DNA of 64,000 nucleotides from Selenomonadaceae bacterium (GCA_017518105.1 JAFWWC010000020.1:2056-66055), one strand, 5' to 3'; shown: positions 8,540 to 56,868, counted from the stretch's first letter. Numbers and translations are program-made. Notes: generated by a model not told the origin, from the letters alone.

Positions 8540-8550
8540 TTCGACGCGAC

Positions 8551-8778: not shown

Positions 8779-8782
8779 GTCA

Positions 8783-8811: not shown

Positions 8812-8817
8812 ATTTGC

Positions 8818-8876: not shown

Positions 8877-8905
8877 TTTAAGAAGAAATTTTTGGAGGAT
8901 GTTCA

Positions 8906-10510: not shown

Positions 10511-10514
10511 TTAA

Positions 10515-30597: not shown

Positions 30598-32919
30598 TTG
30601 AAACTTGACGGCTTGAAAAAACTTCACTTTATAGGAATTGGCGGCGTGGGTATGAGTGCCCTCGCTAAAATTTTGATTGAGCAAGGTTACGAGATAAGCG
30701 GCTCGGACGCTAAAGACTCGCCGACGCTTTACATGCTTAAAAGTCTCGGCGCAAGGATTTTCGTCGGGCACAAGGCTAAAAATATTCTCGACGAGGCGGG
30801 CAATCCCGTCGATGCTATCGTTTGCTCGTCGGCTATCCCTACGGACAATCCCGAAGTCATCGCGGCGGGCAAATTCAAGATTCCTAAGCTCCACCGCTCC
30901 GACATCAACGCTTTCCTAGTCAATTCGCACAAAGGGATTGCAATCGCCGGTTCGCACGGCAAAACTACTACGACTTCAATGATTGGTTACGTCCTGCACT
31001 ACGCGAGCATTGACCCGACGATTATTATTGGCGGCGAATCAACCGATTTGGGCACGGGAGCTATCCTCGGCAAAAGTGATTGGCTTGTAACCGAGGCTGA
31101 CGAAAGCGACGGCTCATTTGTCACGTTGAAGCCCGCAATCGCAGTTGTCACGAACGTTGAGGACGACCACCTCGACCATTATGGCACGATGGATAGGATT
31201 CGCGCCGCGTTTAAGATTTTTATCGAGAATATCGACCGCAAATCGGGCGTGGCAGTCCTTTGCTTCGACAATGACAACCTGCGCGAGCTTGCTAAGGACA
31301 TTGACCGCAAAATTATTTCCTACGCGATTGATAACCCCGCCGACTTTACGGCAAAGAACATTCGCACGACGATTAAGGGCGTGGCGTTTGAAGTTGTGCA
31401 CGGCGAAGAGACGCTTGGCAAAGTTCAGCTGGCGATTCACGGGCGGCACAACGTCCTTAACGCTTTGGCGACGATTGCCACGGCTCTTGAGGTCGGTTTG
31501 AGTTTTAATCAGATTGCCGAGGGCTTAAGCAACTTTCACGGGGCTAAAAGGCGTTTCCAAACCAAAGGACGCGTCAGAAATATTTTAATCGTCGACGATT
31601 ACGCCCATCACCCCACGGAGATTGCCGCGACACTCAAAGCCGCCCGCGAAACTAAGCCGCATAAAGTCATTTGCATTTTCCAGCCCCACAGATACAGCCG
31701 CACGCAACTTTTGCTTAAGGAATTCGGCGGCGCGTTCAAAGAGGCTGACCTTTTAATCTTGACGGACGTTTACTCGGCGGGCGAAGAAAAAATTTCGGGC
31801 GTCAGTGGCGAATCAATCCTCCAAGAAGTCCTAAGCACGACCAATCAAGCCGTCTCATACATTCCCAAACGCGAAGACATTGCCGCCGCTATCAAAGACC
31901 AACTTTCCGCCGGCGATTTGGTTATCACTATGGGCGCGGGCGATATTTACAAGACTGGCGAAGAACTTTTGAACATGCTCAAGGATTTGCGCGAGAAAAA
32001 AATTGTCGTCGTATGTGGCGGCACGTCCACCGAGGCTGAAGTCTCCAGACGCACCGGCAAGGCGATTTTTGACGCGCTAAGCTCCAAAAATTACGACGTT
32101 GAACTTATGGAACTCAATCCGCAGACTTTTGCCGCTACGATTCGCGCTAAGGATTGCGGAATTGTTTTTAACGCGATTCACGGCAAATACGGCGAGGACG
32201 GACTGATTCAAGGGACGCTCGACATGTTGAAGATTCCTTACACCGGTTCTGGAGTGCTTGCCGCCGCTTTGACTATGGATAAGGTCGCCACGAAACATTT
32301 TCTGAACTCCGCTAACCTCTCTACGCCCAAATTCGCCGTTTATCGTGAAATCGACCGTTCAGAAGACCTCGCCGCCGACATTGAAAACAAATTCGGGCTG
32401 CCCGTCGTCATCAAAGCCGCGTCGCAAGGTTCAAGTATCGGCGTGACTATCGTCGAGAAGCCTTCGGAGATTGCCGAGGCGATTGAAAATGCTTTTACCT
32501 TCGGCGACGAGATTTTAGTTGAGGAATTTATTCGCGGACGCGAGCTGACGGTTGCGGTTATGGGCAATGAGGACGCCGCCGAAGCCCTGCCCGTCATCGA
32601 AATCACCACAACGACCGGTCGCTACGATTATAAATCAAAATATACTAAGGGATTGTCGACGCACATTTGCCCCGCGCCGATTCCAGACAATTTGACCGCC
32701 GAAGTTAAAAAATTAGCCGTCGACGCCTTCAAAATCTGCAAATGCGCCGGCGTCGCCCGCGTTGACCTCATGCTTTCCGAAAATAATATTCCTTACGTCA
32801 TCGAAATTAATTCTGTGCCCGGCATGACTGAAACTTCACTTGTCCCCGACGCCGCTCGCGCTGCTGGCATCGATTTTCCGGAGCTTTGCGAAAAAATTCT
32901 TGCCCTCGCCGAATTCTAA
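30598..32919 (+). CDS. murC-ddl: Fused UDP-N-acetylmuramate--L-alanine ligase (MurC) / D-alanine--D-alanine ligase (Ddl)
   Basis: N-terminal HFIGIGGVGMSALA, GSHGKTTTTSM and DDYAHHPTE (MurC). From about aa 470, KIVVVCGGTSTEAEVS, GEDGLIQG, ATP-grasp and EINSVPGMTETSLVP (Ddl). One uninterrupted 773-codon ORF. Confidence 0.9.
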   Translation: MKLDGLKKLHFIGIGGVGMSALAKILIEQGYEISGSDAKDSPTLYMLKSLGARIFVGHKAKNILDEAGNPVDAIVCSSAIPTDNPEVIAAGKFKIPKLHRSDINAFLVNSHKGIAIAGSHGKTTTTSMIGYVLHYASIDPTIIIGGESTDLGTGAILGKSDWLVTEADESDGSFVTLKPAIAVVTNVEDDHLDHYGTMDRIRAAFKIFIENIDRKSGVAVLCFDNDNLRELAKDIDRKIISYAIDNPADFTAKNIRTTIKGVAFEVVHGEETLGKVQLAIHGRHNVLNALATIATALEVGLSFNQIAEGLSNFHGAKRRFQTKGRVRNILIVDDYAHHPTEIAATLKAARETKPHKVICIFQPHRYSRTQLLLKEFGGAFKEADLLILTDVYSAGEEKISGVSGESILQEVLSTTNQAVSYIPKREDIAAAIKDQLSAGDLVITMGAGDIYKTGEELLNMLKDLREKKIVVVCGGTSTEAEVSRRTGKAIFDALSSKNYDVELMELNPQTFAATIRAKDCGIVFNAIHGKYGEDGLIQGTLDMLKIPYTGSGVLAAALTMDKVATKHFLNSANLSTPKFAVYREIDRSEDLAADIENKFGLPVVIKAASQGSSIGVTIVEKPSEIAEAIENAFTFGDEILVEEFIRGRELTVAVMGNEDAAEALPVIEITTTTGRYDYKSKYTKGLSTHICPAPIPDNLTAEVKKLAVDAFKICKCAGVARVDLMLSENNIPYVIEINSVPGMTETSLVPDAARAAGIDFPELCEKILALAEF

Positions 32920-32930: not shown

Positions 32931-32972
32931 AAAAAAATTATCCGAGCCTAGAAATTAAGCTCGGATTTTTTT
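32931..32972. terminator. Bidirectional rho-independent terminator
   Basis: AAAAAAA-tt-ATCCGAGC-n11-GCTCGGAT-TTTTTT. Confidence 0.75.
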
Positions 32973-32982: not shown

Positions 32983-34398
32983 TTATCGCGTCGTATTCGT
33001 TTTGGCGGTGTTTATTTCTTTTCTCATGCGGAAAATCAGCCCGTTGAACTCGTCAGCGCGTTTCTTTATCGCGTCTGCGTATGTTTTGGCGTCCGAAAGG
33101 TATTCCGCGAAGTTTTGCCGCCTCAAGTCCGTAAATCTTTCCATAACTTCATCTGAAATCGCTTTTAACTTTTTTTCCTCTATAAATTCGTTTATCTCGT
33201 CGATTTGAAGGTTAATTATCGGCTCCGACCACTTGATTATAAAGATTTTTTCCTCCGTTTTGCCAGTCGAAAAGATTATGTCCTGCAATTCCCGTTGAAA
33301 TGCGCTTGATAACTTGTTTATTTCGCTCTCTACCTCAAATTTCTCTTGCAATTCGCCGCCTGACATGAATACGAATTTCTGATAGATATTTTTCCGCTCA
33401 TTCAAATAAAATTCGTCTACCTTGTCGCGATATTGGCGCAGAATCGCTACCACTTGCCCTATTTTATCCCCTAAATACCCTTTTAACACGAATTCAAACA
33501 GCGGCAACAATCTTTGTTCTATCAAAATCCTTTTTTTAGCCCATTCGTCGTACCAATTTATAAAAATTTCCTCTTCTATGCTCTCCGAACGGCTTATTGC
33601 TCGCATTTCCTCCCGCAAACTCGTCCGAAATGATTTATATTCCTCGCTGAACGAATTATGCGCCGATATTACGTCCAAAATTATTTTTTTGTGCGCCGTG
33701 AAGAAATTTAGCCGCGTCAACGCGCTTTGAACCAGTTCTACTAGGTTTTCGACCAAAAATCCGAAGCTTGGACGCTCTTCACGCTCCAATTTTGCCATTT
33801 CTCTAAGCGATTCATAGCCCATATTGATTTCTGACAGCTTTTTAAAGAATACTTCTGCCTGTTCCTTGACTAAAAGCATTTCCCGCTTTATTTCTTCCGA
33901 ACCAAACGCTAATTTTCTTACTAAAAACTCCTGCCGAGTCGCCAATAATGTATTTTCTTCGGGTGTGAGGTGCGGATTTTCGATATATTTGGCGTTTAAC
34001 TTTAAAATTGTTCGTGTGAGTTCGCCGATTGACTCTTTTTGCGCCGTTTCTTGACTTTGAATCACGTTTAACAGCTCATCGACTACTTTTTGCGTTGCCT
34101 TGTAGTATTTTATCGGTGATTTTTCGATTTCGGCGACCGCGTAGCCATTTAAAATTGTTTGCGCGTCGATTTCTTGCTTTGGCGGCGTTATTTGCGTGTT
34201 TGACGGTGTGGATTTAGGTTTTTTTTGCATTTCAGGCTTTGAAAAGTGAATTTTAGCAACGTTATACATATAATCACTCATATAAGCATAATTACTAAAA
34301 AACTCAAAGCCAGAATTCTTTAAAAAATCCATAAGAGTCTTTTCAGAGCAGTTTAATTCTTTTGCAACTTCAAAAATACGTTTTTCTTGATAAGCCAA
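32983..34398 (-). CDS. 471-aa helical/coiled-coil protein with an IF2_N-like helix-turn-helix N-terminus, function unknown
   Basis: TTG 34398 sits 8 nt after AAGGAGG. N-terminus (M)AYQEKRIFEVAKELNCSEKTLMDFLKNSGFEF resembles the IF-2 N-terminal domain (RVYELAKELGVSSKELLEKLKELG). The rest is Glu/Lys-rich and helical. The track start 34719 reads through non-coding repeats. Confidence 0.6.
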   Translation of the reverse strand: MAYQEKRIFEVAKELNCSEKTLMDFLKNSGFEFFSNYAYMSDYMYNVAKIHFSKPEMQKKPKSTPSNTQITPPKQEIDAQTILNGYAVAEIEKSPIKYYKATQKVVDELLNVIQSQETAQKESIGELTRTILKLNAKYIENPHLTPEENTLLATRQEFLVRKLAFGSEEIKREMLLVKEQAEVFFKKLSEINMGYESLREMAKLEREERPSFGFLVENLVELVQSALTRLNFFTAHKKIILDVISAHNSFSEEYKSFRTSLREEMRAISRSESIEEEIFINWYDEWAKKRILIEQRLLPLFEFVLKGYLGDKIGQVVAILRQYRDKVDEFYLNERKNIYQKFVFMSGGELQEKFEVESEINKLSSAFQRELQDIIFSTGKTEEKIFIIKWSEPIINLQIDEINEFIEEKKLKAISDEVMERFTDLRRQNFAEYLSDAKTYADAIKKRADEFNGLIFRMRKEINTAKTNTTR

Positions 34399-34435
34399 AG
34401 GATTCAACCTCCTTAAAAATGATTTTTGCTGGAAG

Positions 34436-34464
34436 ATTATAGCATGTAGAAGAAAAATGAGCAA
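34436..34464 (-). promoter_or_regulatory. Sigma-70-type promoter of the 471-aa gene
   Basis: Minus strand TTGCTC (34464-34459), 17 nt spacer, TATAAT (34441-34436) with a TGC extended -10 context. Confidence 0.6.
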
Positions 34465-34492
34465 AGATTTTTTCAAAACGACCTCTGAAGAT

Positions 34493-34620
34493 GATTTTGG
34501 TCTTTGAAAGACGCTTTGAACTGCTTTCATCGGCTTGAAACTGCTTTTGGCGGTTTGAAAACGGTTTTGAGTGCTTGAAAGTGATTTTGGAGCTTTGAAA
34601 CGGGTTTTGAGGTCGATTTG
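34493..34620. repeat. Iteron-like array of about six tandem 19-22-bp direct repeats
   Basis: + strand units: ttgaactgctttcatcggc (34516), ttgaaactgcttttggcggt (34535), ttgaaaacggttttgagtgc (34555), ttgaaagtgattttggagct (34575), ttgaaacgggttttgaggtcga (34595), plus partial units at 34493-34515. Consensus TTGAAA-NNG-NTTTTGR-NNGY. The 20-bp period is not a multiple of 3. Confidence 0.8.
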
Positions 34621-34635
34621 GAGGCTCAAATTACG

Positions 34636-34656
34636 AAATCCTATATATGGGATTTT
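34636..34656. repeat. Palindrome AAATCC-n8-GGATTT (copy 1)
   Basis: aaatcctatatatgggatttt. Confidence 0.8.
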
Positions 34657-34692
34657 GTATCGCGTGATTATGCGTGTTTTTCGGCGATTACA

Positions 34693-34710
34693 AAAATCAG
34701 GGGTGATTTT
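34693..34710. repeat. Palindrome AAAATCA-GGGG-TGATTTT
   Basis: aaaatcaggggtgatttt. 7-bp arms sharing the AAAATC half-site. Confidence 0.8.
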
Positions 34711-34724
34711 GAGGGTCAAAACGG

Positions 34725-34746
34725 AAAATCCAGAATATCGGATTTT
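34725..34746. repeat. Palindrome AAAATCC-n8-GGATTTT (copy 2)
   Basis: aaaatccagaatatcggatttt. Confidence 0.8.
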
Positions 34747-34780
34747 TCAAAAGGCTAAGTGGCGTCATTACGCGAAACAA

Positions 34781-34804
34781 TAAAAAAGCCCCTGTTCAGG
34801 GCTT
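34781..34804 (-). terminator. Rho-independent terminator downstream of the 1230-aa gene
   Basis: Minus strand AAGCCC-tgaacag-GGGCTT-TTTTATT. Confidence 0.65.
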
Positions 34805-34815
34805 GAGAAGGGCTG

Positions 34816-34859
34816 AAAAATCCAGCATACAGGATTTTTATCCGAAATACCGGATTTTT
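34816..34859. repeat. Two adjacent palindromes of the AAAATCC-n-GGATTTT family (copies 3 and 4) directly after the stop of the 1230-aa gene
   Basis: aaaaatccagcatacaggattttt followed by atccgaaataccggattttt. Confidence 0.8.
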
Positions 34860-37800
34860 CAGTTCGCCAAGACGATAACGCCAGAATGCTTGAGATTCCA
34901 AGAATCGCCGCTGACCTCGAAGGTCGCCGCTCGCTCGACACGAATTTTAGAATAAGTGCCGCCGTCGAAATTCGATTCAAAGACCAGCCCAAAAGCGCGT
35001 TCGGCGTGATGATTTTCGGTGTAAGTCTTGAGATTCGGCACGACCGCGAAAATATTTCCGTCGACGTTGCACGCCCAAAAATCGCCGTTCGCTATACCGG
35101 ATTCCGTAAATTTCGGGGCTATTTTCGGGTTATTCATGCGTTCTTCGACATTTGCACAGCTAAAAGCACGTATTTTATAGCGTCTAATGAATTTTTCGCG
35201 GGCTTGACGGGCACTAAACCCGCTCAATTTCTCTAAAGCGTTAAAATCGTTTACAAAATTTTCTCCGATTGAACTTTCAACGCTCGGCGAATTTTTTTCT
35301 GCAGAAATAATTTTTCGAGTCCCTAATTTCTTATTCTTAGTTCCTAAAAACATCTTTAATTCGGAAATAAAAATCGGTTCAACAGACAATTTTTTAACGT
35401 CGCGACCCTTTTTATCAACAAAAAAGTTATTAACATCGCTGATAAGGTCTTCTTCTTCAAAATTAATGCCTTCCGACCAAAGCTTTTGCGAGGAATTAAA
35501 TCTATCGACGAAAATTTTAAATTCGCGAAGACTATTAACCGTGACGCCCTCCGAAATGTCATAAGCACTGATAAACGCGCCCGCCAATTGATTTTCGCTG
35601 TTCTGAACGAAATTTTCGCCCGCCAATACCGCTGAATAAATAATTTCGTCAGATTCGCCGAACATTTCCCGATTTATACGCGCTTCATCGAAAAATTCAG
35701 CGTCATTTGCAGGTTTTTCGACAATCATACCCGCCGCAACCTCGATTTTCGGTTGTTCGCTAAGGTGCAAGTTAAATTTTTTATAGTTTTCTAGTCCAGA
35801 CGCCGCAACAAAGACTTTTTCAAGGACATTTAAATAAATATTGCCGTCAATTTCCGTTCCGCCCGTGAGCCATTTAAAAATTCGTGCGCCATTGCCGCCT
35901 ACGAACAAATGCGGCACCTTTTTTTCCCGATAATGCCCGTAATCATGCAAAATCTTAACTAATTTGCCCAAATAATGAAATAAACCCGCCGTAGCGAACT
36001 GTGAAGCCTGCAAAACGTTTTTTATTTGCTCCGTACCCGTTTTAAACTTCAAATCAGCTAAATATTTCTCGGAATGCTCGCGTAAATCGGCGTCAATTAC
36101 CGCTTGACGTTGCGTTTCGTCGTTAAATTTGCCAGAAATTTTTTCGCCAGCAAAAAGCTCGTAATTATCATAAATCGGCTTAAAAAGTTGTCTTGCGGCG
36201 TATTTAATCGACGTATGATAAATAATTCGAGGTGATTCGCCGCTAATAACGCTAATATCGGTCGTTCCCGCGCCAATATCAACGCAAATTGCACCTTGAG
36301 CGAAATTTCCGCTTTTCCCGTCGAGTTTATTGAAGTGATACGCCGCCGCTTTGCTTTCAGACCAGAAATTTGGCGTATTTTCGACTGATTCGCGGCAAAT
36401 TTCTTGGAAAGAGACCTTTTGAGCCTGCGAAAACGCTGTTGGATAAGAAAAATTCCATTGAATAGCGTTTGCACCGCTCGAAAACGCCTCAACAGCCGCT
36501 TGCAAACAAATTTGTTCGATATAAGCCGCCGTTTTACGTCTTTGGCGGTCATCGTCTTGCCATTTTAAATTTGCGTCAATATTTGCGGCTAATTGCTCGA
36601 AAACTCGCGTATTCTCGGAACTTAATAAAAAAACGTGCCCATCGATTAACGGACGAATATTTTTTGTATTTTCGACGTTAAGCAAGTGGAAAATGCTTAA
36701 AAAAGAACCGTCAGCGCGATTTGGGATTTGCGAAGGGATAAAATTGCGATAAGTTTGAGTTCGTGCGCCGCCTGAAGACGTAATTTGGAATAAATGCGGC
36801 GAAAAATTCAATGGACGCGGCGAATTTTGATTTTCGGCGAAAAAAACCATTGTGGAGCTTGTCCCGAAGTCCACGCCGATTTTCCAAGTCAAATTAGCGT
36901 TGCGTTCGGCGATTTTAGGTTTGTTAAGTAGAATTGCGCCGACTTCAAAGGGATTTTTACCTAAATGAGCGGGCGGATTGTACGTTACGATTAAAATTTC
37001 TGGGAAATTATCAAGCTTAACGGTGAATCTATTCTTTAAAAAGTTTTTATCGTTGTGAGCATAAGGAGTGACAAAATAAATATCTGATGCGGGCAAATCG
37101 TCATCAGACTTATAATTTTCGTAGTAAAGGTAGTAATTTTTCCAATCAGGGCGTTGAAAGTTGGGATAAAGCTCGATAACGGGGACTTCCTGGTCAATAT
37201 AAATTAAATCGCGCTTTGGATAAGTTTTAGACCAACGAAAATCTTTTCCATTGCCATTTACGCCGCTAAGAGGAAAAATAAAGTGCAAATAAAAGTTGTC
37301 GGCGTCATCGGAGATAGAAATTCGATTTGAAAGCTCTTCGGGCGTAAAAATATCCAACAGTTCACGTCTAAGGGGCAGAATCGGCGTTAAATCTTTTTCA
37401 ACGAGCGAATCATAACCTTTAAGCGGCGGAGAGTTCGGAAAGGCGTTTGCAGGTTCGACAACAGCCATTCTGTCATAAAAAAAATCTTCGGGGCGGCGGA
37501 ATTCAGCTCCATTGAGGTTTACGCGCCCAATTTTTTTATTATCGGCTAATTTATCGTTTGAAATTTCATTTGCGCTGATGCCTTGCCAAATGACGAGCCT
37601 TGAAGCGTCGACGCCTTCAAAGCGGGCAAAGTCTCTGACGAATTCGGGAGAAATCAACAGCAAATGCTTTTTATCGTTGAGCAAACGGACGGCGGAATCT
37701 TCAAAGCGAGCTTCGCGCCCTTTAATCGTTTCGTCGAGCAATCTGGTAATCCCAACGTGCAAATTTAAATTCGACGGGACAATTTCAAAGCTGACGGTCG

Positions 37801-38551
37801 AGGGTTGAGCATTAGCAACGTCGCGTTCGTAATCGGCAATGCATTTCAACAGCGCATTAGAAATTTCCTTAGCACGGCTTCCGAACTTCTCTAGCTGCTG
37901 AATTTTGCCGTAAAGATTGTCCAACCACATTTTGAGCGCGGCGAGTTCGACGGAAGATAAAAATTTTATCGGGTCGGTCAAGGTTCGTTGATTGGAACTC
38001 CACGGCGTGAAAATATTTCCGTCAAAGGTGTTTTCGTAGTCCGCCGCACAAGTTACGAGCGTCGTCGGCGAAGTCATTGCTAGCGGTCGTCCGTTGAAAA
38101 AAATTATGTAAACGTCCGTCAGCCAAGCGTCCCTGTTGCCCGTCAATGATTCTTGTGGCGCGAGAGACTTTAAAATTTGCGCGAGGTCTGAATTGTCGTC
38201 GAGGAGATTGACTTGCTCCGCTTTGAGGTCGAGACGTTTGAAATCTTTTAGCGCGAGCATTGCCAATAACGCCCGCCACTCGCCGCGAACTTTTTCATGT
38301 AAGCCCGTGACAAATTGTTTGGTCGGCTCCAAGTCGAACAACGCCATTTTGAACAGCAGAGGACGCGCCCACATGTCGGGGATTGAATCGACCGAGCCCA
38401 TGTCCTTGATTGATTCGCCGCAATCGAGACTGTTTGACAGTCCGAGCAAAAAATTTATGTCCGTTTCCTTCCAAATGCCTGCCTGGTCTTTGAGGACTTT
38501 GGAAACGTCTTCGTTGACCTTCGGCAACATCGGAAAATATGAATTCGCCAT
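34859..38551 (-). CDS. 1230-aa protein of unknown function with an embedded actin/Hsp70-fold (ASKHA) ATPase domain
   Basis: ATG 38551 sits 6 nt after GGAGGT. The track start 38656 has no SD. ASKHA motifs: WKIGVDFGTSSTMVFF (phosphate 1), AICVDIGAGTTDISVI (phosphate 2) and HLFVGGNGARIFKWL (adenosine). About 590 aa N-terminal and about 300 aa C-terminal carry no motif I recognise. Confidence 0.7.
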   Translation of the reverse strand: MANSYFPMLPKVNEDVSKVLKDQAGIWKETDINFLLGLSNSLDCGESIKDMGSVDSIPDMWARPLLFKMALFDLEPTKQFVTGLHEKVRGEWRALLAMLALKDFKRLDLKAEQVNLLDDNSDLAQILKSLAPQESLTGNRDAWLTDVYIIFFNGRPLAMTSPTTLVTCAADYENTFDGNIFTPWSSNQRTLTDPIKFLSSVELAALKMWLDNLYGKIQQLEKFGSRAKEISNALLKCIADYERDVANAQPSTVSFEIVPSNLNLHVGITRLLDETIKGREARFEDSAVRLLNDKKHLLLISPEFVRDFARFEGVDASRLVIWQGISANEISNDKLADNKKIGRVNLNGAEFRRPEDFFYDRMAVVEPANAFPNSPPLKGYDSLVEKDLTPILPLRRELLDIFTPEELSNRISISDDADNFYLHFIFPLSGVNGNGKDFRWSKTYPKRDLIYIDQEVPVIELYPNFQRPDWKNYYLYYENYKSDDDLPASDIYFVTPYAHNDKNFLKNRFTVKLDNFPEILIVTYNPPAHLGKNPFEVGAILLNKPKIAERNANLTWKIGVDFGTSSTMVFFAENQNSPRPLNFSPHLFQITSSGGARTQTYRNFIPSQIPNRADGSFLSIFHLLNVENTKNIRPLIDGHVFLLSSENTRVFEQLAANIDANLKWQDDDRQRRKTAAYIEQICLQAAVEAFSSGANAIQWNFSYPTAFSQAQKVSFQEICRESVENTPNFWSESKAAAYHFNKLDGKSGNFAQGAICVDIGAGTTDISVISGESPRIIYHTSIKYAARQLFKPIYDNYELFAGEKISGKFNDETQRQAVIDADLREHSEKYLADLKFKTGTEQIKNVLQASQFATAGLFHYLGKLVKILHDYGHYREKKVPHLFVGGNGARIFKWLTGGTEIDGNIYLNVLEKVFVAASGLENYKKFNLHLSEQPKIEVAAGMIVEKPANDAEFFDEARINREMFGESDEIIYSAVLAGENFVQNSENQLAGAFISAYDISEGVTVNSLREFKIFVDRFNSSQKLWSEGINFEEEDLISDVNNFFVDKKGRDVKKLSVEPIFISELKMFLGTKNKKLGTRKIISAEKNSPSVESSIGENFVNDFNALEKLSGFSARQAREKFIRRYKIRAFSCANVEERMNNPKIAPKFTESGIANGDFWACNVDGNIFAVVPNLKTYTENHHAERAFGLVFESNFDGGTYSKIRVERAATFEVSGDSWNLKHSGVIVLAN

Positions 38552-38670
38552 GCTGATACCTCCAAAAAGTTTTCCGCGCAAAGTATAGCAGAAAAAAAAT
38601 TCCGCGCAAAGCGGGCAAGGCGTGTTATAATGGCGACGCTTGAGATTTTTTGACAAGAGAGGAAAGTTTA

Positions 38671-39342
38671 ATGTTCAGAGTAAAAATCGTCGCCGCTCTG
38701 CTAATCGTCGGGTTGTTCGGAGCGATTCACCTAGCCGCGCCAGAATTCTTGCCGGAGGTCGTCGACCTTTTATCACGCGGAGACATCGTAGAGACGGCGA
38801 ATTATATTCAAGGCTACGGCTCGTTAGCGGTCGTGTTCAGTTTCCTGCTTACGTTGTTTGTAAACGCAATCGGCTTCCCACCCGCAATAATCTTTTCCAC
38901 GGCGAACACGTTGATATTTGGTATCGTGCCGGGGATAGTTTTATCGGTCGTAGCGGAGACCGTCGGCGTGACGATAAGTTTCCAGCTGTTAAGATTCTTT
39001 TTCCGCGACTCGGCTAAGAAGATTATCAAGAAAAGCAAACGCCTAAGCTCCGTCGACAAGTACAGCTCCAAAAACGGCTTTACAGTCATGCTGATTGCCA
39101 GAATGGTTCCTTACGTGCCGAGCGGGATATTAAATGCGGCGGGCGCGTTGAGTTCGATGAGCCTGCGCGATTACTTCCTAGCGTCGCTTGTCGGCAAGTT
39201 CCCGTCGACGGGCATTGAGGCAATCATTGGGCATGACGCCATCTTGCAGGAAGAGGACATGACGCGGATAATTGTCGTCGTGATATTCGCCATTGTCCTA
39301 ATCGCGTGGGCGTGGCATTATCAGAAGAAGTATCACCATTAA
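38671..39342 (+). CDS. TVP38/TMEM64 (DedA-related, SNARE-associated) family membrane protein
   Basis: 223 aa polytopic protein. MIARMVPYVPSGILNAAGALS and FLASLVGKFP are typical of the family. ATG 38671 follows GAGAGGAAAG. Confidence 0.7.
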   Translation: MFRVKIVAALLIVGLFGAIHLAAPEFLPEVVDLLSRGDIVETANYIQGYGSLAVVFSFLLTLFVNAIGFPPAIIFSTANTLIFGIVPGIVLSVVAETVGVTISFQLLRFFFRDSAKKIIKKSKRLSSVDKYSSKNGFTVMLIARMVPYVPSGILNAAGALSSMSLRDYFLASLVGKFPSTGIEAIIGHDAILQEEDMTRIIVVVIFAIVLIAWAWHYQKKYHH

Positions 39343-44109: not shown

Positions 44110-45216
44110 TTGACGAGCAGGCAAATAATCTTCGTGGCACTGGGCGGATCGCAAGCAGTCGGGGCAAGCTGTTACTTCCTCAAGCTCGGCGATAATAATC
44201 TTTTGCTCGATTGCGGCTACGGTTCGACACGCGGAATCAGATTCGCGCCGCAATTTAATGCTCTGCTCGACACGCCTTACTTGCAAGACTTCCATCAGGT
44301 ATCGCACGTCGTGATTTCTCATGCACACCTAGACCACGCCGCTGCCCTGCCTGATTTCTTGGAACTCAACGAACGAGCCGCAGTTTACATGACGGACTTG
44401 ACGCGAGAAATTTTATCCGCGCAACTGGAGGAGAGATTCACTCGGCTTGAGGAAAATATTTCGTCGGTCGCCTTCCTGCAAAAAATTCCTCTGCCGCGAC
44501 TTAAGCTGAGCTTTCACCAAGCAGGACATATCCCCGGCGCGATGATGACGCTGATAAACTTCCGAGGCAAGAACATTCTTTACACGGGCGACTATTCGAC
44601 GTTCTCGACGCAACTGGTAGGAGCCGCCCTCTTGCCCGACGTGCCGATTGATATTCTGATTCTTTGTGGACTGCACGCTAGGCATCCGAACTATCATCGC
44701 TACGGGGACAGCGACGCCGCCTTGAAAAAGATTCTGCACAAGATTTATTATGCTCTGCGTCATCGTAAGTCGGTTTACTGTCAAGTCACGCAGATTAGCA
44801 AGGGCGTTGAGCTCATCACGCTGATTAACAAGTTCCTGCCGCAAGTCGAGCTTTTCATTGATGAACGCGTCATGGGAATCGTTCGCCGCTTCGAGAACTT
44901 GCATATCCCGATAATGCGCGAACAGAATCACCCGCTGAACGTCCTGCCGCGAGCCCCCTGCGTTATCCTGTCGACAATGCCGCCGCCTGTGCATTCAGGT
45001 TTGGAGATTATAAACGGCGATTTCTCTTTGCATGATGACTTCGCCGCGACTGTAGAATTTGTCCGCCGAATCAATCCGAAAACTTGCGTTGTAGTGCACA
45101 GCCCGCCCGATAAATTCTTCCACACGGGCACGACGCTTGAACAAGTTTTAATTAACGACCCCGACTCAAGGACGAGCTTTATCTTCCCGAAGACGGGCGA
45201 GCCGTTTGAACTGTAA
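44110..45216 (+). CDS. MBL-fold metallo-hydrolase of the beta-CASP type (putative nuclease)
   Basis: LLLDCG (motif 1), ISHAHLDHAAALP (HxHxDH), QAGHIPGA (motif 3), LYTGDYS (motif 4), later SLHDDF and VVVHSPP (beta-CASP B/C-like). TTG start 7 nt after GGAGGTG. Confidence 0.7.
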   Translation: MTSRQIIFVALGGSQAVGASCYFLKLGDNNLLLDCGYGSTRGIRFAPQFNALLDTPYLQDFHQVSHVVISHAHLDHAAALPDFLELNERAAVYMTDLTREILSAQLEERFTRLEENISSVAFLQKIPLPRLKLSFHQAGHIPGAMMTLINFRGKNILYTGDYSTFSTQLVGAALLPDVPIDILILCGLHARHPNYHRYGDSDAALKKILHKIYYALRHRKSVYCQVTQISKGVELITLINKFLPQVELFIDERVMGIVRRFENLHIPIMREQNHPLNVLPRAPCVILSTMPPPVHSGLEIINGDFSLHDDFAATVEFVRRINPKTCVVVHSPPDKFFHTGTTLEQVLINDPDSRTSFIFPKTGEPFEL

Positions 45217-45232
45217 CAGGAGGGAACTTTCA

Positions 45233-46303
45233 ATGATAAACACCAATGACCCGCTGATTAAAAGATTTATCGACAACCTGCACAAAGCCATTGAACGCAA
45301 GAGCAAAAATCTTTCCTCAAGCTCCTACGATGACTACATCAGGGAAAATCGTATCATAAAGATTTTCTGCGAGGACAAGACGAGGGGTCCGCGCCAATGT
45401 GCCGCCGCCATGAACGCCCGCTACAAAACCGACCTGGACAACGAAGACGTTATCCGCGTCCTTAAGTCCAATCGATTGAGCTATCAGGATAAACGCGCCG
45501 AGCTTTTGAATTGGGCGGAGGAGATGGTTGAGACTTTCGCTAAGGCTCTCGAAACGCAAAAGCAGAAGGACTTCGATGAGTTCATGACCGTTCGCAACAG
45601 AGCCATTCGCACGAACGACTACGAACGCTATAAAATTCAGGAGCGAATTGCTAGCCTTATGCTTTACGTCAAGCACCCCGAATTGGACAGCGGCACCGAT
45701 GCCGAGGCTCTTGAAAAGTTCGGAAACGTCTACATGAAGCATTTCATCTACGACGCCAGCGACTTCCTCCGGAATATTTGTAGTAAGCCCAAGACAAATT
45801 CCAAAGGCGATAAGAGAGACCCTCAGGCGGAAAAGATTGAGCTACTCGAAAACATGTTGAATCGCTCCGATATGCTCTTGAAGGACTTGCAAGACGAGTT
45901 CGACGCCCGCATTAAGCAAAGTCATCAAGATGATTTGGTGGAGTTCTTCTCGCGGCTCAATTCGGAAAAGTACGGTTGCATTCTCGACGAGGTCTTGAAC
46001 GCTAGGAACGGGGTTCGCAAGCTCCGCAAGGAAAATATTCAGCTTCATCCCGAAATAGGCGGGCTGTTTATCCTCATCGAACGCTTCGCGCAATTTATCC
46101 GTGACAGCGAGATCAATCCAATCCTCAAGCCCGGTGCCGTCAAAGAAGTTCGTTTGGAAGAGGTCGAGTCGTGCGATTATGACGGTTCGCCCTTCCTAAA
46201 CACCACGGAGACTAAAAAGGTTAGAGTTCTATCGCCCGGCTGGGTGTATAAGAATAAAGATGTTCAAATTTCACGCCCGCGACTTAAAGAGGTCACGGAG
46301 TAA
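45233..46303 (+). CDS. 356-aa protein: possible J-like (HPE) domain fused to a GrpE-like C-terminal domain
   Basis: ATG 45233 sits 8 nt after AGGAGGG. KDFDEFMTVRNRA...ASLMLYVKHPELDSGTDAEALEKFGNVYMKHF parallels DnaJ QDYYEILGVSKTA...[27 protein letters not shown]. A coiled coil follows. The C-terminus ...KKVRVLSPGWVYKNKDVQISRPRLKEV parallels the GrpE end (..V..V.QKGY.L..R.LRPA.V.V). All by eye. Confidence 0.4.
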   Translation: MINTNDPLIKRFIDNLHKAIERKSKNLSSSSYDDYIRENRIIKIFCEDKTRGPRQCAAAMNARYKTDLDNEDVIRVLKSNRLSYQDKRAELLNWAEEMVETFAKALETQKQKDFDEFMTVRNRAIRTNDYERYKIQERIASLMLYVKHPELDSGTDAEALEKFGNVYMKHFIYDASDFLRNICSKPKTNSKGDKRDPQAEKIELLENMLNRSDMLLKDLQDEFDARIKQSHQDDLVEFFSRLNSEKYGCILDEVLNARNGVRKLRKENIQLHPEIGGLFILIERFAQFIRDSEINPILKPGAVKEVRLEEVESCDYDGSPFLNTTETKKVRVLSPGWVYKNKDVQISRPRLKEVTE

Positions 46304-46315
46304 GGAGGTATTTTT

Positions 46316-49222
46316 ATGTTAATCAACGGAGAAGAGCACAACGATTTGTGCGTTGGAATTGATTTGGGTACGACCAATTCCGTTTTGGCGACGGTGAATA
46401 TCCGCCCGAACGGAAATATCGTCAGCAAGGTCGTCGACCTGGACAGAGCTGTTGACATGTACAACGCGGGGGTAGGTGCTAAATTCACGCTAAAGAAAAG
46501 TCCTATCCTGCCGAGCTGCGTCTATTACAACGACGAAAAAAACTATCAGCCGATTGTCGGCGACTTCGCGAAGGGCAGGTATCCTCTTCGCCCGTATTTA
46601 GTCGCTAAGTCAATCAAAAGCCAAATGGGTAATGAGTTCGTCGAAGGTTTATCATCGAATATCCCAGATAAGACGCCCGCGCAAGTCTCAGCCAGAATCT
46701 TAGAACACATGTTGCGCAATGCCGCTAAGATTTATCACTTGGAGAAAATTGACGACGCAGTAATAACCGTGCCCGCCAATTTCGATTTCATCATGAGGCA
46801 AGCGACTTTGAAGGCGGCGGAGCTTGCTGGAATTAAAATCAGAAAGGCGGACGGCTCCCCGCGACAAATTCTTTTGTCTGAACCACGCGCCGTTATCTAT
46901 GATTTTATTAATCAAGTGCGCAATGGTGAGATAGCCGACCAAATATTAGATTTAAGTTCGAAGAAAAATGTTATGGTCTTCGACTTGGGCGGCGGCACTC
47001 TCGATATTACTTTGCATGAAATTTCACGACGCGACGACGCGCCCGAAATTTTAAACGTCAAAGACATTGCGACCAATCGTTATACCCTCTTGGGCGGCGA
47101 TGATTTTGATTTGTGCCTCGCTAAGGCTATGTTCCAAAATTATCTCAAGCAATACGCGACGCACTCGGACATTGTTCAAAAGATACGCAACGAGGAACAA
47201 GGCGTTATGAGTCAGCTCCTCAACTACGCCGAGAATTTAAAACTGGAAGTTAGTGCTCAGAAAAGCGACGCGTTCGGCGATGGTGATTCTGGTTGGTGGG
47301 ACGACGAAGGCGAAGATTTTCCCGTCGGCGGCAATATCGGCACTACGGGTTATGCTTACAGCGACAATTTCACGGTCACGCAACTTGAAGACATTTGGAA
47401 AGACTTTATGGGCGATGAATTGCGATTCGACGACTACAAAGACCTAAACGCCGTCGCAGAGAGATTCGGCAAGCAGAAGAATATTATCCTGCCGATTCTC
47501 GACGTGCTAAGCAAAGCCTCAATCAAGCTCGGCACGGACATTAAAGTTGACGCCGTAATCATGAACGGAGGAATGTCCCGCTTCTACATGGTGATTAATC
47601 GCTTGAAGAAGTTTTTCGGCTTTGAACCGATTGTCGCCCTAGACCCCGACCAAGCTGTTGCTCGTGGCGCGGCTGTCTACCATTACTTTATCCACAAGTA
47701 CGACAAGGAGCTTGCCGGCGAAGTTCAAAACGAATTGCCAAGCAAAGAACCCAAACTTCCTACGCCGCCCCCGCTGACTTATTCAAGGCAGAACACCCGA
47801 CCCGATTTCCTGACACGCAGAACCAATCGCAATATCACGGCGGCTGATAGGTCAATCGGTGTCGTCTTCGGCAGCAATATCCTCAACGAAAGTTTTTATC
47901 TGGTAACCTTCGGCGGCAATTACGAAGAGATTATCCCCGCCGGCAAGGAGTTGCCTTACACGTCGAACCGATTCACCGGCTTTAGGTTGCCGCCGGGGAA
48001 AAATGTTATCAGCGTTCCGATTGCCCGTTGCGAGGCGGACGGCAACTACAAAATCATCGCCAAGGGCAATATCTCCTTCCCCGAACGCTATTCCAAGATG
48101 AAGGAAGATGTTTTCGTTACGTTTAGCATCTTCATGGACGAGGATAAGATTATCCGCATGGACGCCGCCACGTGTCGAGATGAACGCGGGCTTGAGCTGA
48201 TGGATCATGGCACGACGGAAATTTCTATCGCGACTGGCTTTGATAAGGGCGTTAAGACTAAGCTAATCTCTCGTTTCGGGGGCAAGGTCAATCCGCGTGC
48301 CCAACTCAATACGATTCGTTCGCTGTGCCGCAATGTCGATGATTCTTTCCGCCGCAAGAACAAGGAAGCTAACGTTAAATTCTCTGCGACGCTCAAGCTA
48401 AACGTCAGCACGATTATTTCTGCCACGAATCACAGAGACTTTGCCGAACCGCTCCTGCAAATGCTAGACGACGTTAAGAACTCCCGCGAAGAATCATTCA
48501 AGCTCCGTTGCGTCATCATTGCTCGGAAGATTGGCTCGGTTTGGACGCCCCAACAAAAAAGACGCCTTGCGCGCCTGTGCTTGTACCTTTTGGACGATGA
48601 GATTTACAACCCCGGCATAACCCTCGGACGCCCCCAAGGCTTGAAGATGAACACGAAGATACAAGCTATCTATACGCTGTCGATGTGCGGCAGTGAAAGT
48701 GATCTTGCCTTGCTGATTAACCTGCACAACAACGACAAGTTCCGCATGGCAAATCTTTTTACGCACGCAATGACTAAAACGGAGGTCGATTGGATTTATT
48801 ACGAGTTCAAGAAGGATTGTGCGAAGATTTTAAACGGCGCGACGACCTCGGCGATTCAAATCTCGGCGCACGCGCTCGGCGTTGCCTTCAAAGTCGACGG
48901 ACGCCCGACTAACTCTTCAATTCGCCGTGAACAAATCGTGACTGACCTTTGCAACGTGATTCGCTCGCGGAACCTAAATAACGTCGAGATTAGCGTTTGC
49001 ATTTTGGCTATTGGAATGATTTGCGACCGCCGTAACGTCAACAACATGTCGCAAGGCTCCTTCGAAGACGCGGAAAAGCTCCTTAACGATCTGAACCGCA
49101 TTTACGACGAAAACTTTGTTGAACTGTTCGCTAAGGCTCAAGACGTGGCGCAGAAGATGATTCACGGCGGGCAACTCAGCGCGGAGGAGGAAGAGTCTTT
49201 GCTGATGAAGTGGGCGACTTGA
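46316..49222 (+). CDS. Atypical Hsp70-family protein (NBD + SBD-beta-like region) with about 330-aa helical-repeat C-terminal extension
   Basis: VGIDLGTTNSVLA, AVITVPANF, VMVFDLGGGTLDITL, LLGGDDFD, VIMNGGMSRF and DPDQAVARGAAVY (Hsp70 NBD). YLVTFGGNYEEIIPAGKELPY...FMDEDKIIRMDA is SBD-beta-like. The C-terminal about 330 aa are helical rather than the canonical lid. Confidence 0.85.
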   Translation: MLINGEEHNDLCVGIDLGTTNSVLATVNIRPNGNIVSKVVDLDRAVDMYNAGVGAKFTLKKSPILPSCVYYNDEKNYQPIVGDFAKGRYPLRPYLVAKSIKSQMGNEFVEGLSSNIPDKTPAQVSARILEHMLRNAAKIYHLEKIDDAVITVPANFDFIMRQATLKAAELAGIKIRKADGSPRQILLSEPRAVIYDFINQVRNGEIADQILDLSSKKNVMVFDLGGGTLDITLHEISRRDDAPEILNVKDIATNRYTLLGGDDFDLCLAKAMFQNYLKQYATHSDIVQKIRNEEQGVMSQLLNYAENLKLEVSAQKSDAFGDGDSGWWDDEGEDFPVGGNIGTTGYAYSDNFTVTQLEDIWKDFMGDELRFDDYKDLNAVAERFGKQKNIILPILDVLSKASIKLGTDIKVDAVIMNGGMSRFYMVINRLKKFFGFEPIVALDPDQAVARGAAVYHYFIHKYDKELAGEVQNELPSKEPKLPTPPPLTYSRQNTRPDFLTRRTNRNITAADRSIGVVFGSNILNESFYLVTFGGNYEEIIPAGKELPYTSNRFTGFRLPPGKNVISVPIARCEADGNYKIIAKGNISFPERYSKMKEDVFVTFSIFMDEDKIIRMDAATCRDERGLELMDHGTTEISIATGFDKGVKTKLISRFGGKVNPRAQLNTIRSLCRNVDDSFRRKNKEANVKFSATLKLNVSTIISATNHRDFAEPLLQMLDDVKNSREESFKLRCVIIARKIGSVWTPQQKRRLARLCLYLLDDEIYNPGITLGRPQGLKMNTKIQAIYTLSMCGSESDLALLINLHNNDKFRMANLFTHAMTKTEVDWIYYEFKKDCAKILNGATTSAIQISAHALGVAFKVDGRPTNSSIRREQIVTDLCNVIRSRNLNNVEISVCILAIGMICDRRNVNNMSQGSFEDAEKLLNDLNRIYDENFVELFAKAQDVAQKMIHGGQLSAEEEESLLMKWAT

Positions 49223-55107: not shown

Positions 55108-55542
55108 ATGAGAACTTCAACCTTATTGCTTTACGTCTTGTTCATATCAATTGTTGCCTGCAGTGTGGTTGTCATCCTTTCCCCAAAAGATAGTCTTCGG
55201 TCGCTCGGAAAAGTTTCTAATCAAAAGAAATACACAATGTACCTCGGCACGAACGACAAGGACACCTTGAAGCAGGAACTGCCGACGGAGACAATACGCG
55301 AGCAAATGCACGAAATCTGCATGAGGCACGCCGACGGCTACACGGTGTCGATTATGGAAGGTTATTACCGCGACGGCGAAGGCAATCCGACTCATGAAGT
55401 TACTTTGGTTTATGTGTTCTTTGATACGCCGCTGGAGTCCGTCAAAAAGATTATGGACGAGGCACAGGTTAAATTTAATCAGTCGAGTATCCTGCTTGAG
55501 GAAAGTAAATCCAAAAGCATTTTCTACCAGAAGAAAGATTAA
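55108..55542 (+). CDS. Membrane-anchored hypothetical protein
   Basis: N-terminal TM/signal anchor LLLYVLFISIVACSVVVIL. No motif recognised with confidence. Confidence 0.5.
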   Translation: MRTSTLLLYVLFISIVACSVVVILSPKDSLRSLGKVSNQKKYTMYLGTNDKDTLKQELPTETIREQMHEICMRHADGYTVSIMEGYYRDGEGNPTHEVTLVYVFFDTPLESVKKIMDEAQVKFNQSSILLEESKSKSIFYQKKD

Positions 55543-55557
55543 CGGAGGTGATTTATC

Positions 55558-55983
55558 GTGAGCGTCAATCAAGTTTCGGTGTTCCTTGAAAACAAGCCCG
55601 GCACGCTGAACAAGCTTACTGAAGTCCTTGCCGCCAACAATGTTAATATCCGTGCGTTGAGTTTGGCGGAGACAAGTGAGTTCGGTATCGTGCGCATGTT
55701 GGTTAATGACGTGTTCGAGGCAACGACCGTCCTCAAGGAAAATCATTTCGTGGCGACCCTTACACCCGTTTTGGCTTATGCCATTGCCGACGAGGCGGGC
55801 GACCTAAACAAGCTCCTTAAGAAGTTCAGCGAGATTGAAGTTAATATCGAGTACATGTACGCCTTTGCGGGCAAGGAACGCGCTTACATGATTTTCCGCG
55901 TAAACGACACCAAAAAGGCTGAAGCCCTCCTCAAGGGCAAGGGGCTGAAGTCTTTAACACAGGAGGAAATTTCTGCCGTATGA
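55558..55983 (+). CDS. ACT domain-containing protein
   Basis: VNQVSVFLENKPGTLNKLTEVLAANNVNIRALSLAETSEFGIVRMLV, with a second ACT-like half. GTG start. Confidence 0.75.
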   Translation: MSVNQVSVFLENKPGTLNKLTEVLAANNVNIRALSLAETSEFGIVRMLVNDVFEATTVLKENHFVATLTPVLAYAIADEAGDLNKLLKKFSEIEVNIEYMYAFAGKERAYMIFRVNDTKKAEALLKGKGLKSLTQEEISAV

Positions 55984-55986
55984 TTA
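55854..55986 (+). repeat. 133-bp direct repeat, copy A (3' end of the ACT gene plus SD and ATG of the methyltransferase gene)
   Basis: Appears identical, on reading both copies, to 56869-57001 (offset 1015 bp): catgtacgcctttgcgggcaaggaacgcgcttacatg...aggaggaaatttctgccgtatgatta. Confidence 0.9.
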
Positions 55987-56856
55987 AGCTTAACAAAGTT
56001 ACTTTAGATTACTAGCCGCGCAATAAGATACTCCCGAAATTGCGTAGTAATCTGCAAGGTTTCGCTGCCCCCGAAATGAGCGGATTTGAATCGGCGTTCT
56101 TGTGCGGTCTATTGAAAGCTTATCGCCCGAAAAAAATTCTGGAGGTCGGAGTATCTGCTGGTAGCAGTACAACAATAATTTTACAAGCACTTGAAGACAT
56201 CGGCGAGCCTTACGAAATGTATTCCCTCGATGTTTTGGAAAAATGGTATCAGGATAAAACAAAATCGTCGGGATTCATGGCGACCTTTGCCAAAGAAAAT
56301 AATTTATTCCACACCCCCCCCCCAGTCAACCTTATGCGGTAAACATGAATTGTATCTAGGTAAATATCTTCCACAAATAATCGATGAAATAGGTGACGAT
56401 ATAGATTTCGTGATTCTCGATACGGTTCATTCTCTACCCGGTGAAGTTTTGGATTTTCCTGTGATGTTGCCTTATCTCAAAGACGGCGCGATTGTTGTTC
56501 TGCATGATGTAAGACACAATCAATATAGACCGAAAGTTTGGCATGGTTATGCAACAGCGGTTGTATTGAGTGCGGTGACCTCAGAAGAAAAATTCCTGAA
56601 TTTTGAACCCGAAGCTGAAAACCGTCCTTATTGCTACTCAAATATCGCAGCGTTCAGCATTAGTCAACGAACACGGGAATATATAGAAAACCTTTTTTTT
56701 AGTCTCGTAATAACATGGCATTATGTTCCCGACGAGAAGCAGTTAGGAATCTATCGCGAATTTTACAAGGAACATTACCCAAAAGAATTGGTTGATATTT
56801 TTAATGAGGCAGTCAAAATGAATCGCAACTTGCATTTAATGTTTAAACAGAAATAG
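55980..56856 (+). pseudogene. Class I SAM-dependent methyltransferase paralog 1, disrupted by an in-frame TAG and a frameshift at a C10 tract
   Basis: ATG 55980 (ATGA overlap with the ACT stop) gives MIKLNKVTLDY, then TAG at 56013 where the paralogs have Glu. The frame then reads PRNKIL...KKILEVGVSAGSSTT...NNLFHTPPP. The C10 tract (56314-56323) shifts the frame. The downstream frame QSTLCGKHELYLGKYLPQIIDEIGDDIDFVILDTVH... runs to 56856. C9 would restore it. Confidence 0.7.
56314..56323 (+). repeat. Homopolymeric C10 tract inside methyltransferase paralog 1
   Basis: Counted directly: c at positions 56314-56323. Confidence 0.95.
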
Positions 56857-56868
56857 TCTTTTATAGTT

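Follow-up and report, generated by a model that had tools for sequence, protein, structure and literature searches.

Bacterial actins of the MreB, MamK, FtsA and BeeR type are built on a nucleotide-binding fold that carries three sequence motifs. The gene considered here lies on the minus strand (34859..38551) of a 64,000-nucleotide (nt) stretch of DNA from a Selenomonadaceae bacterium (GCA_017518105.1, JAFWWC010000020.1:2056-66055), referred to below as the window, and encodes a giant protein of 1230 amino acids (aa) with the same fold and motifs, for which these actins are the best profile and structural matches. The window protein is, however, three to four times larger than they are, with ~550 unassigned residues before its ATPase domain and ~240 after it. 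On balance, we consider the 1230-aa gene to be a strongly conserved, fused, stand-alone paralogue of the ATPase that is encoded elsewhere in a canonical gene cluster, and the gene next to it (the partner gene, 32983..34398, minus strand, 471 aa) to be a separate and optional unit.

The centromere on which the Par protein of pSK1 acts consists of repeats upstream of par; direct repeats also lie upstream of the partner gene. Par has been described as a single-protein partition system (PMC11500499). The canonical cluster, on the other hand, is best compared with the FtsZl1 systems, in which a Pfam Tubulin_2 protein is encoded with von Willebrand factor A (vWA) and OmpA/MotB proteins and which were predicted to function in membrane remodelling (Makarova and Koonin 2010, PMC2875224); one FtsZl1 neighbourhood (Magnetospirillum amb2961) holds a giant Hsp70-like protein (PMC2875224). 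The cluster likewise pairs a Tubulin_2-type GTPase with a lipoprotein that has a motif like the metal-ion-dependent adhesion site (MIDAS), with membrane proteins and, in the outgroups, with an OmpA/MotB-like protein. However, FtsZl1 proteins are ~900-1200 aa long, compared with ~495 aa for the cluster GTPase, and neither the giant actin-fold ATPase nor the small proteins encoded beside it are among the neighbour families listed for FtsZl1 (PMC2875224). Identity with the FtsZl1 neighbourhood families A1-A2 and B1-B9 was rejected, since there is no correspondence in the supplementary tables (PMC2875224), and none of the FtsZl1 partners is found in the window. The outgroup clusters encode proteins that match the ZorA and ZorB models of Zorya, but no effector of the ZorC, ZorD or ZorE type, and the ZorAB-like pair is absent from the window and from the selenomonad clusters.

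The giant ATPase

The ATPase domain occupies the middle of the window protein (residues ~551-990; 35582..36901, minus strand) and is defined by its three motifs, by Pfam and by Foldseek. It belongs to the acetate and sugar kinase/Hsp70/actin (ASKHA) superfamily, with a phosphate-1 motif DFGTSST (residues 561-567; 36851-36871, minus strand), a phosphate-2 motif DIGAGTTD (residues 758-765; 36257-36280) and an adenosine motif VGGNGA (residues 884-889; 35885-35902), all placed by motif coordinates. The motifs occur in the correct order, and none of their core G, D and T residues varies among 24 family members, the most distant of which has 45% identity. An AlphaFold2 (AF2) model of residues 1-1075 has a mean predicted local distance difference test (pLDDT) of 79.8 and a predicted template modelling score of 0.69. 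Foldseek matches the ATPase part of this model to MreB, Mbl, MamK, BeeR and Hsp70 nucleotide-binding domains (NBDs) at E ~1e-8 and probability 1.0, with target-normalized template modelling (TM) scores of 0.46-0.55 for actin chains and isolated NBDs; the 50 matches listed are all actin or Hsp70 ATPase domains, with ~420-530 alignment columns each. Because model and structure search agree, the two-lobed RNase-H-like ASKHA fold stands, and the three signatures picked out by an earlier sequence-only reading of this stretch do indeed fold as an ATPase of the actin/Hsp70 type.

Is the protein an actin or an Hsp70? The NBD-type fold is common to both, and the Foldseek E-values for Hsp70 NBDs (~1e-8) are as good as those for MreB, as would be expected if the protein acted as a chaperone or disaggregase of the Hsp70 type and not in assembly as actins do. 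The sequence profiles, however, lean to the actin branch: Pfam MreB_Mbl matches 24/24 members and FtsA 23/24, compared with 0/24 for HSP70 (E up to 1), and the NCBIfam matches, all sub-threshold, are to MreB, MamK, FtsA and BeeR, leaving the remainder of the protein uncovered. The window protein itself scores 21.7-22.1 bits against MreB_Mbl (PF06723), below the gathering cut-off of 27 and over residues 751-803 only. Moreover, no Hsp70 substrate-binding domain is detected, and the one genuine Hsp70-like protein in the window (968 aa) is unrelated. A chaperone or disaggregase is therefore highly unlikely.

Searches of PDB sequences with the ATPase gave nothing significant, PADLOC-DB 2.0 returned zero families and PHROGs nothing useful. 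SrfB, a large bacterial protein with an embedded ASKHA-like domain, was a candidate raised by the sequence-only reading; it was rejected, there being no Pfam match to it in the window protein or in 24 relatives (E up to 1) and no SrfA- or SrfC-like neighbours. By Pfam and NCBIfam, the protein belongs to no other characterised family either.

The N-terminal ~550 residues (36902..38551, minus strand) are of mixed alpha/beta and then beta-rich secondary structure in the AF2 model and correspond to no known family, with no match in Pfam, NCBIfam or PDB sequences. They nevertheless hold the block in which, by homologue alignment, conservation within the protein is highest (IDSIPDxWARPLLFKMALFD, GEWRALLAMLALK). 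After the ATPase domain comes a helical tail (residues ~991-1075; 35327..35581, minus strand; AF2 helices at 996-1072), which is the end of the core shared with relatives of ~1100 aa and the point where the ~1110-aa size class terminates in the alignment with the window protein. The remainder consists of a linker and a fused C-terminal domain (CTD, residues ~1091-1230; 34862..35326 with the linker, minus strand), delimited by tblastn and jackhmmer; a protein search with the CTD returned close fragments only. No Pfam model covers the ~60% of the family's length that lies outside the ATPase domain, and no structure of a member has been solved.

The canonical cluster and the solo class

A word-indexed protein search returned 356 relatives, for which all source names listed are Selenomonadaceae. 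These fall into two size classes: one of ~1230 aa, at 69-98% identity, and one of ~1110 aa, at 44-56% identity, which is without the last ~155 residues. A profile search over 1.84 billion cluster representatives (50% identity) gave 2096 matches, 750 of them at E<1e-30 and nearly all of the latter 1050-1150 aa long and full-length. Scanning the GTDB species genomes extended the family to Acidobacteria, Gloeobacterales, another cyanobacterium and Clostridia, whose relatives are full-length and have 27-31% identity.

All open reading frames (ORFs) of 82 loci (numbered with an L) were clustered; the counts given here refer to 34 loci of the ~1100-aa class and 32 full-length loci of the 1230-aa class. 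In the former, the canonical order is a lipoprotein, a protein with three to four transmembrane helices, a Tubulin_2-like GTPase, the giant ATPase and one to three small proteins that end in the CTD. The lipoprotein (~440 aa, with a lipobox; 31/34 loci) has invariant residues D57-x-T59-x-S61, T122 and D142 in a MIDAS-like arrangement; 18 members had no Pfam match, and its profile had no match in the PDB. The transmembrane protein (~165 aa) is present in 29/34 loci, and the tubulin-like GTPase (~495 aa), with the motifs GIGGTG and GGTGAAG, in 32/34. The GTPase is recognised by Pfam Tubulin_2 in 19/19 members (best 2e-11) and by Tubulin in 17/19, and its profile found nothing significant among PDB sequences. 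Directly 3' of the ATPase gene, and often overlapping its stop codon, 30/35 loci encode a CTD protein of 184-436 aa (jackhmmer). The CTD (~135 residues) is always the C-terminus of this downstream protein and is homologous to the C-terminus of the window protein (tblastn). The first CTD protein usually begins with a transmembrane helix, as it does in L002 and L072.

The clusters of Acidobacteria and Clostridia add a ZorA/ZorB-like ion-channel pair, homologous in 9-10 outgroup loci. The ZorA-like protein (600-840 aa, three transmembrane helices) matches the PADLOC ZorA models, including the tail region, at 2.6e-7 in the Acidobacterial locus L072; the 231-aa ZorB-like protein has one transmembrane helix and a peptidoglycan-binding OmpA domain (4e-15) and matches ZorB at 2.6e-15 over nearly its full length. 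No cluster protein scanned had a PADLOC match to ZorC, ZorD, ZorE or ZorF/G effectors, and no PADLOC model matched the core ATPase, tubulin-like, lipoprotein, transmembrane or CTD proteins. The Selenomonadaceae clusters are without the pair and instead have a GH3 glycosidase, among SH3 and YkuD cell-wall genes. Their composition is host-like, and synteny is stable across metagenome-assembled genomes (MAGs) of Selenomonas, Anaerovibrio and Schwartzia; L061 and L066 come from MAGs classified as Selenomonas ruminantium. No description of a system combining actin-like, tubulin-like and MotA/OmpA/vWA proteins, or of Zorya in connection with tubulin-like or actin-like proteins, was found in the literature, and the Quinella genome paper makes no mention of the 1230-aa gene. 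The cluster is thus widespread and apparently undescribed.

The window copy belongs to the other class. The 1230-aa gene was found in 32 loci from Quinella-group MAGs (69-98% identity), in which the tubulin-like, lipoprotein and transmembrane genes are each present in 0/32. Given this absence and the homology of the CTD, the class is a solo paralogue that has gained the CTD by fusion and lacks the membrane anchor. Both classes co-occur, on different contigs, in the MAGs CAMNPA01 (L034, L052) and CAMVAG01 (L043, L055), so that the solo copy may cooperate with a canonical cluster at another genomic site.

The solo gene is also well kept. Between the window and Quinella sp. 1Q5 (locus L012, ATPase 97% identity), the ratio of nonsynonymous to synonymous substitution rates (dN/dS) is 0.075 for the ATPase gene and 0.062 for murC-ddl next door. 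Judged by these rates, the ATPase is under strong purifying selection, with a constraint of housekeeping grade. The accessory nature suggested by the sequence-only reading is thus not supported: the gene is not sporadic, given its presence in 32 Quinella-group loci and a selection as tight as that on murC-ddl. The flanks, on the other hand, vary among genomes; the VTT gene that lies upstream of the ATPase gene in the window is found there in 10/32 loci. In L005, whose ATPase is 98% identical to that of the window, a gene for a 910-aa RTX-repeat (HemolysinCabind) protein, missing from the window, is placed between the VTT and ATPase genes (7116-9845). Genes related to it are found at this position in L008 and L009, and directly 5' of the ATPase gene in L010, L024 and L032. 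In L208 (3296-6987), the 1230-aa gene is split into ORFs of 504 and 726 aa and is intact in the otherwise identical L207; the split reflects a mistake in the assembly or else a frameshift of recent date.

How might such a protein work? The window protein is a soluble, lineage-specific ATP-binding protein with an actin-type fold, in which ATP cycling by the ASKHA domain probably powers assembly or a switch of conformation. The CTD would be the surface by which the ATPase normally docks onto a membrane-anchored partner, in which case the fused copy could either plug into a canonical cluster elsewhere in the genome or act alone. Tentatively, the window gene can be seen as derived, by fusion and emancipation, from the core ATPase of a widespread but undescribed prokaryotic machine. 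Its components would be a divergent tubulin-like GTPase, the giant (~1100-aa) actin-fold ATPase and a lipoprotein with the MIDAS motif, joined in the ancestral state by an ion-driven stator of the ZorAB type. If this is true, homologues of both cytoskeletal NTPase superfamilies cooperate in one envelope-spanning complex. Such a machine would bear on the role of the orphan Tubulin_2/FtsZl1 systems predicted in 2010 and on how ZorAB-type motors are wired to cytoplasmic partners, and the solo class, with its docking domain fused and its anchor lost, would constitute a natural experiment that points at the interacting parts.

What is the machine for? An envelope- or peptidoglycan-associated, cytoskeleton-like role is favoured because of the lipoprotein, transmembrane, OmpA, GH3, SH3 and YkuD neighbours, the host-like composition and the tight constraint, but with a confidence that stops short of even. 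A role in phage defence ranks below it and is rather unlikely. By that account, the whole family would be an anti-phage or conflict system, in which a Zorya-like envelope sensor acts through the tubulin-like and actin-fold NTPases, and these set the threshold of the response or carry it out. The ZorA- and ZorB-model matches in 9-10 outgroup clusters would fit such a system, as would the patchy distribution across phyla and the variable flanking genes, which in the solo class include RTX-repeat and partner-family genes. However, no core protein has a PADLOC match, and nothing in the core is recognisable as an effector, be it a nuclease, a protease or another kind. A GC content like that of the host, synteny that holds across the Selenomonas, Anaerovibrio and Schwartzia MAGs, cell-wall genes in place of ZorAB in the selenomonad clusters and the low dN/dS of the window copy are likewise at odds with it.

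The preferred reading, that of a fused solo paralogue with an optional partner, also has evidence to contend with. No tubulin-like, lipoprotein or transmembrane gene lies within the 64-kb window, and the N-terminal 550 residues and the CTD are without structural assignment. ATP hydrolysis, polymerisation and membrane association are all presumed across the family, and a putative vWA identity of the lipoprotein is suggested by its motif. The match to ZorA, a modest one, could be due to a homology with MotA/ExbB proteins in general. The ZorAB-like genes, like the patchy spread and variable neighbours, would suit a defence system too. Finally, the seven adjacencies of partner-family genes to the ATPase gene (6/32 loci plus L212) exceed chance, and a functional tie between the two is possible.

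The ZorA/ZorB-like pair lies at 14240-16857 in L072 and is found also in L068, L070-L075, L077, L079 and L081, in some cases with an ion-channel-domain protein. These outgroup clusters could represent an unrecognised type of Zorya-related system.

The partner gene and its leader

The partner protein consists of a small N-terminal domain (residues 1-52; 34243-34398, minus strand; delimited by Foldseek), a disordered linker and a conserved all-helical domain (residues ~79-471; AF2 pLDDT 86.8), in keeping with the IF2_N-type domain and long helical region proposed from the sequence. The N-domain folds like the N-terminal domain of IF2 (4b47, 4b48, 4b3x and 4b44; root-mean-square deviation 1.0-1.8 Å over ~50 residues, Foldseek probability 0.99-1.0) and also like the DNA-binding domain of pSK1 Par on its centromere DNA (8csh_A; TM score 0.73, 27% identity, probability 1.0). 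Pfam gives only a weak HTH_Mga match on the window partner; PF04760, found on its relative P0183, we take to be IF2_N. For the helical domain, Foldseek found nothing in the PDB or in BFVD (none below E 0.04 in the latter), and the partner profile gave nothing significant against PDB sequences; for the partner protein as a whole, PADLOC-DB 2.0 returned zero families.

The partner family comprises 185 matches, mostly from Selenomonadaceae, with a few from Clostridium. In alignment, its members share a helical C-domain of ~385 aa and differ in the N-terminal module, which is IF2_N-like in the window, a coiled coil with DUF1566/Lcl_C in most members, or a zinc ribbon. A partner gene follows the ATPase gene in 6/32 loci of the 1230-aa class, and in L212; in L010, the ATPase gene lies directly against murC-ddl without it. 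No partner relatives were found in the canonical clusters by hidden Markov model search. In an unbootstrapped neighbour-joining tree, the ATPase-linked copies are scattered, a pattern suggesting that the partner gene has come to this flank, or left it, more than once.

Between the two genes lies the non-coding leader of the partner gene (34399..34858, minus strand, 460 bp), which the sequence-only reading described as highly structured and which is rich in repeats. A repeat finder located four palindromes of the form AAAATCC-N8-GGATTTT (34635-34657, 34725-34747, 34817-34839 and 34837-34859, minus strand), some of them spaced by 90 nt, and a tandem array of five or more overlapping units that recur every 20 nt (34495-34611, minus strand); the palindrome core has 3 occurrences, compared with 0.13 expected. 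Both sets of repeats are upstream of an extended −10 promoter-like box, TGcTATAAT (34436..34444, minus strand), which was read from the sequence ahead of the ribosome-binding site of the partner gene; a TATAAT box is found at the equivalent place in L012 and L084. A terminator-like hairpin with a T-run (34786..34804, minus strand; AAGCCCTGAACAGGGGCTT then TTTTATTGTT), located by consensus scan, follows 55 nt past the ATPase stop codon. Another hairpin terminator, with an 11-bp stem and a T-run, is found by the same scan between the convergent partner and murC-ddl genes (32940..32966, without assigned strand).

The leader (34495-34859 in the window) recurs in L084 (7640-7810), a locus without the giant ATPase, where 175 nt of it are 82% identical upstream of a partner homologue with a different N-terminal module. 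The element therefore belongs to the partner gene and not to the ATPase gene, and since it is better conserved than the proteins (43% identical), a functional DNA or RNA element is implied. Rfam had no match over 32.8-38.9 kb. In metagenomes, a 39-nt pattern from the leader had no match, and a 17-nt pattern had 120 matches, none with the element. The DNA-binding-type N-domain of the partner may bind the upstream repeats. However, the difference of the N-terminal module in L084 argues against simple autoregulation through the IF2_N-like domain.

Both genes are AT-rich relative to their surroundings, an impression formed by eye that the computed values bear out: GC content over 33-38 kb is 0.39-0.43, compared with ~0.51 in the flanks, and GC at third codon positions (GC3) is 0.455 for the ATPase gene and 0.435 for the partner ORF, against a median of 0.62 (standard deviation 0.064) for the 42 ORFs of the window. 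The composition is thus atypical for this genome. The GC3 deficit of the ATPase gene is confined to one sub-clade, consisting of the window, L005, L006, L007 and L012 (0.46-0.48, neighbours 0.59-0.64). The gene has this same GC3 in L008 and L009 (85-86% identity), where the neighbouring genes have it too, and in most other genomes it matches the host. The low GC3 would thus reflect an event that preceded the split of the window lineage from Quinella sp. 1Q5, in which the gene was replaced by that of a relative with lower GC, or transferred from one; the equally low GC3 of the partner gene fits a lateral origin too. The synonymous distances of the ATPase, partner and murC-ddl genes are similar (0.14-0.16), which suggests that both genes were in place before that divergence.

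Do the two genes form a module? The sequence-only reading took them as a two-gene insertion, that is, as one horizontally acquired accessory module (for defence, conflict or derived from a plasmid) working as a pair. The genes, the motifs and the low GC are as it described, and the common GC3 deficit would fit a single acquisition, as would the position of the partner-family genes right after the ATPase gene in the seven loci where they meet (gap 13 nt in L011/L207). A role in conflict would also be consistent with the fast evolution of the partner (dN/dS 0.41 between the window and L012) and with the partner relatives of Clostridium baratii, whose neighbours include type I restriction and GmrSD genes. 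However, 26/32 loci, L010 among them, have the ATPase gene without a partner, and the partner and its leader are found without the ATPase. The terminator-like hairpin after the ATPase gene and the −10 box of the partner gene would separate their transcription units, and the two genes are under different selection (0.075 vs 0.41), with the ATPase constrained like a housekeeping gene and host-like in GC in most genomes. Neither protein answers to a PADLOC model, so that the proposed check against defence families came out negative, and PHROGs offered no match. A paired module is quite unlikely on this evidence. Instead, the partner gene is best regarded as a separate, optional unit, whose pairing with the ATPase gene is incidental or at most facultative. 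There is a lesson for annotation here, in that low GC and an odd neighbour may mimic an inserted cassette even though the gene histories differ.

The partner gene and leader could alternatively be the remnant of a plasmid-borne unit for partition or replicon control, a single Par-like protein binding its own iterons and unconnected with the ATPase. Like pSK1 Par, the partner has a small N-domain of the same fold (the match to 8csh_A) followed by long helices, and direct repeats upstream of its gene; the tandem 20-nt units and the 90-nt-spaced palindromes sit just upstream of the promoter box, and the leader travels with the partner gene. Unlike pSK1 Par, however, the partner is chromosomal in all contexts seen, with no replication, relaxase or other plasmid genes, and its ~390-aa helical domain is unlike anything solved and matches nothing. 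Its relatives swap the N-domain for a DUF1566/Lcl_C module, which most of them carry in place of a DNA-binding one, or for a zinc ribbon, and have an LRAT-type enzyme as their companion; the L084 homologue even keeps the leader despite its different module. Such an origin is thus unlikely, if somewhat less so than a paired module.

Away from the ATPase gene, the partner relatives usually have the gene of an LRAT-type enzyme behind them. Such a gene follows a partner relative in L018, L083, L084, L209, L210 and L212, and is absent from the window. The partner-family gene and the LRAT gene (PF04970) recur as a two-gene unit in L083 (Clostridium baratii, 8001-11306), L084, L209 and L210, and the C. 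baratii pair lies between HsdR, GmrSD and HsdS genes. This unit may be an uncharacterised conflict module.

Gene calls, flanks and neighbouring genes

An ORF listing confirmed the two minus-strand genes (34859..38656 and 32983..34719) in the place where they had been reported, between murC-ddl and a TVP38 gene. For the ATPase, the start is the ATG at 38551 (MANSYFPMLPK), which is conserved in all aligned homologues; the longer, TTG-initiated ORF to 38656 was rejected as an artefact of the mechanical listing. The partner gene starts with a TTG at 34398, 9 nt past a GGAGG, giving the ORF 32983-34398 and 471 aa. The mechanical call of 578 aa was rejected as well, since the equivalent upstream stretch in L012, the closest relative with a partner, is a separate short ORF; the homologues of 470-479 aa in three other loci also count against it.

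By Pfam scan, the locus is flanked by a VTT/TVP38-domain gene (38650-39342) and by murC-ddl (30598-32919). In the latter, MurC and D-Ala-D-Ala ligase form one fusion protein of 773 aa, a fusion that is kept in L010 and L012. With murG further upstream, a cluster of division and cell-wall genes thus ends right beside the locus. As the sequence-only reading had noted, there is no integrase or transposase, here among the flanking genes scanned against Pfam or the genes annotated in the syntenic L001, the window ORFs having been scanned in part.

A second low-GC3 patch in the window (55147-57858) closely precedes the gene for DNA polymerase III alpha. It holds a 199-aa protein without a Pfam match (GC3 0.49) and a 221-aa Methyltransf_24 protein (GC3 0.37), followed by a 287-aa Methyltransf_24 gene with a near-normal GC3 of 0.60.

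The second Hsp70-fold locus to which the sequence-only reading had drawn attention (44110-49222) is unrelated to the giant ATPase (BLASTP E=1.2) and normal in composition. It encodes a 368-aa hydrolase of the metallo-beta-lactamase (MBL) fold, an unknown protein of 365 aa and the Hsp70-like protein (968 aa, Pfam HSP70 1e-36), in an order that is the same in L001, L005 and L047 and with GC3 values of 0.61-0.63. The MBL protein of L001 has a weak Pfam match to the Anti-Pycsar protein Apyc1.

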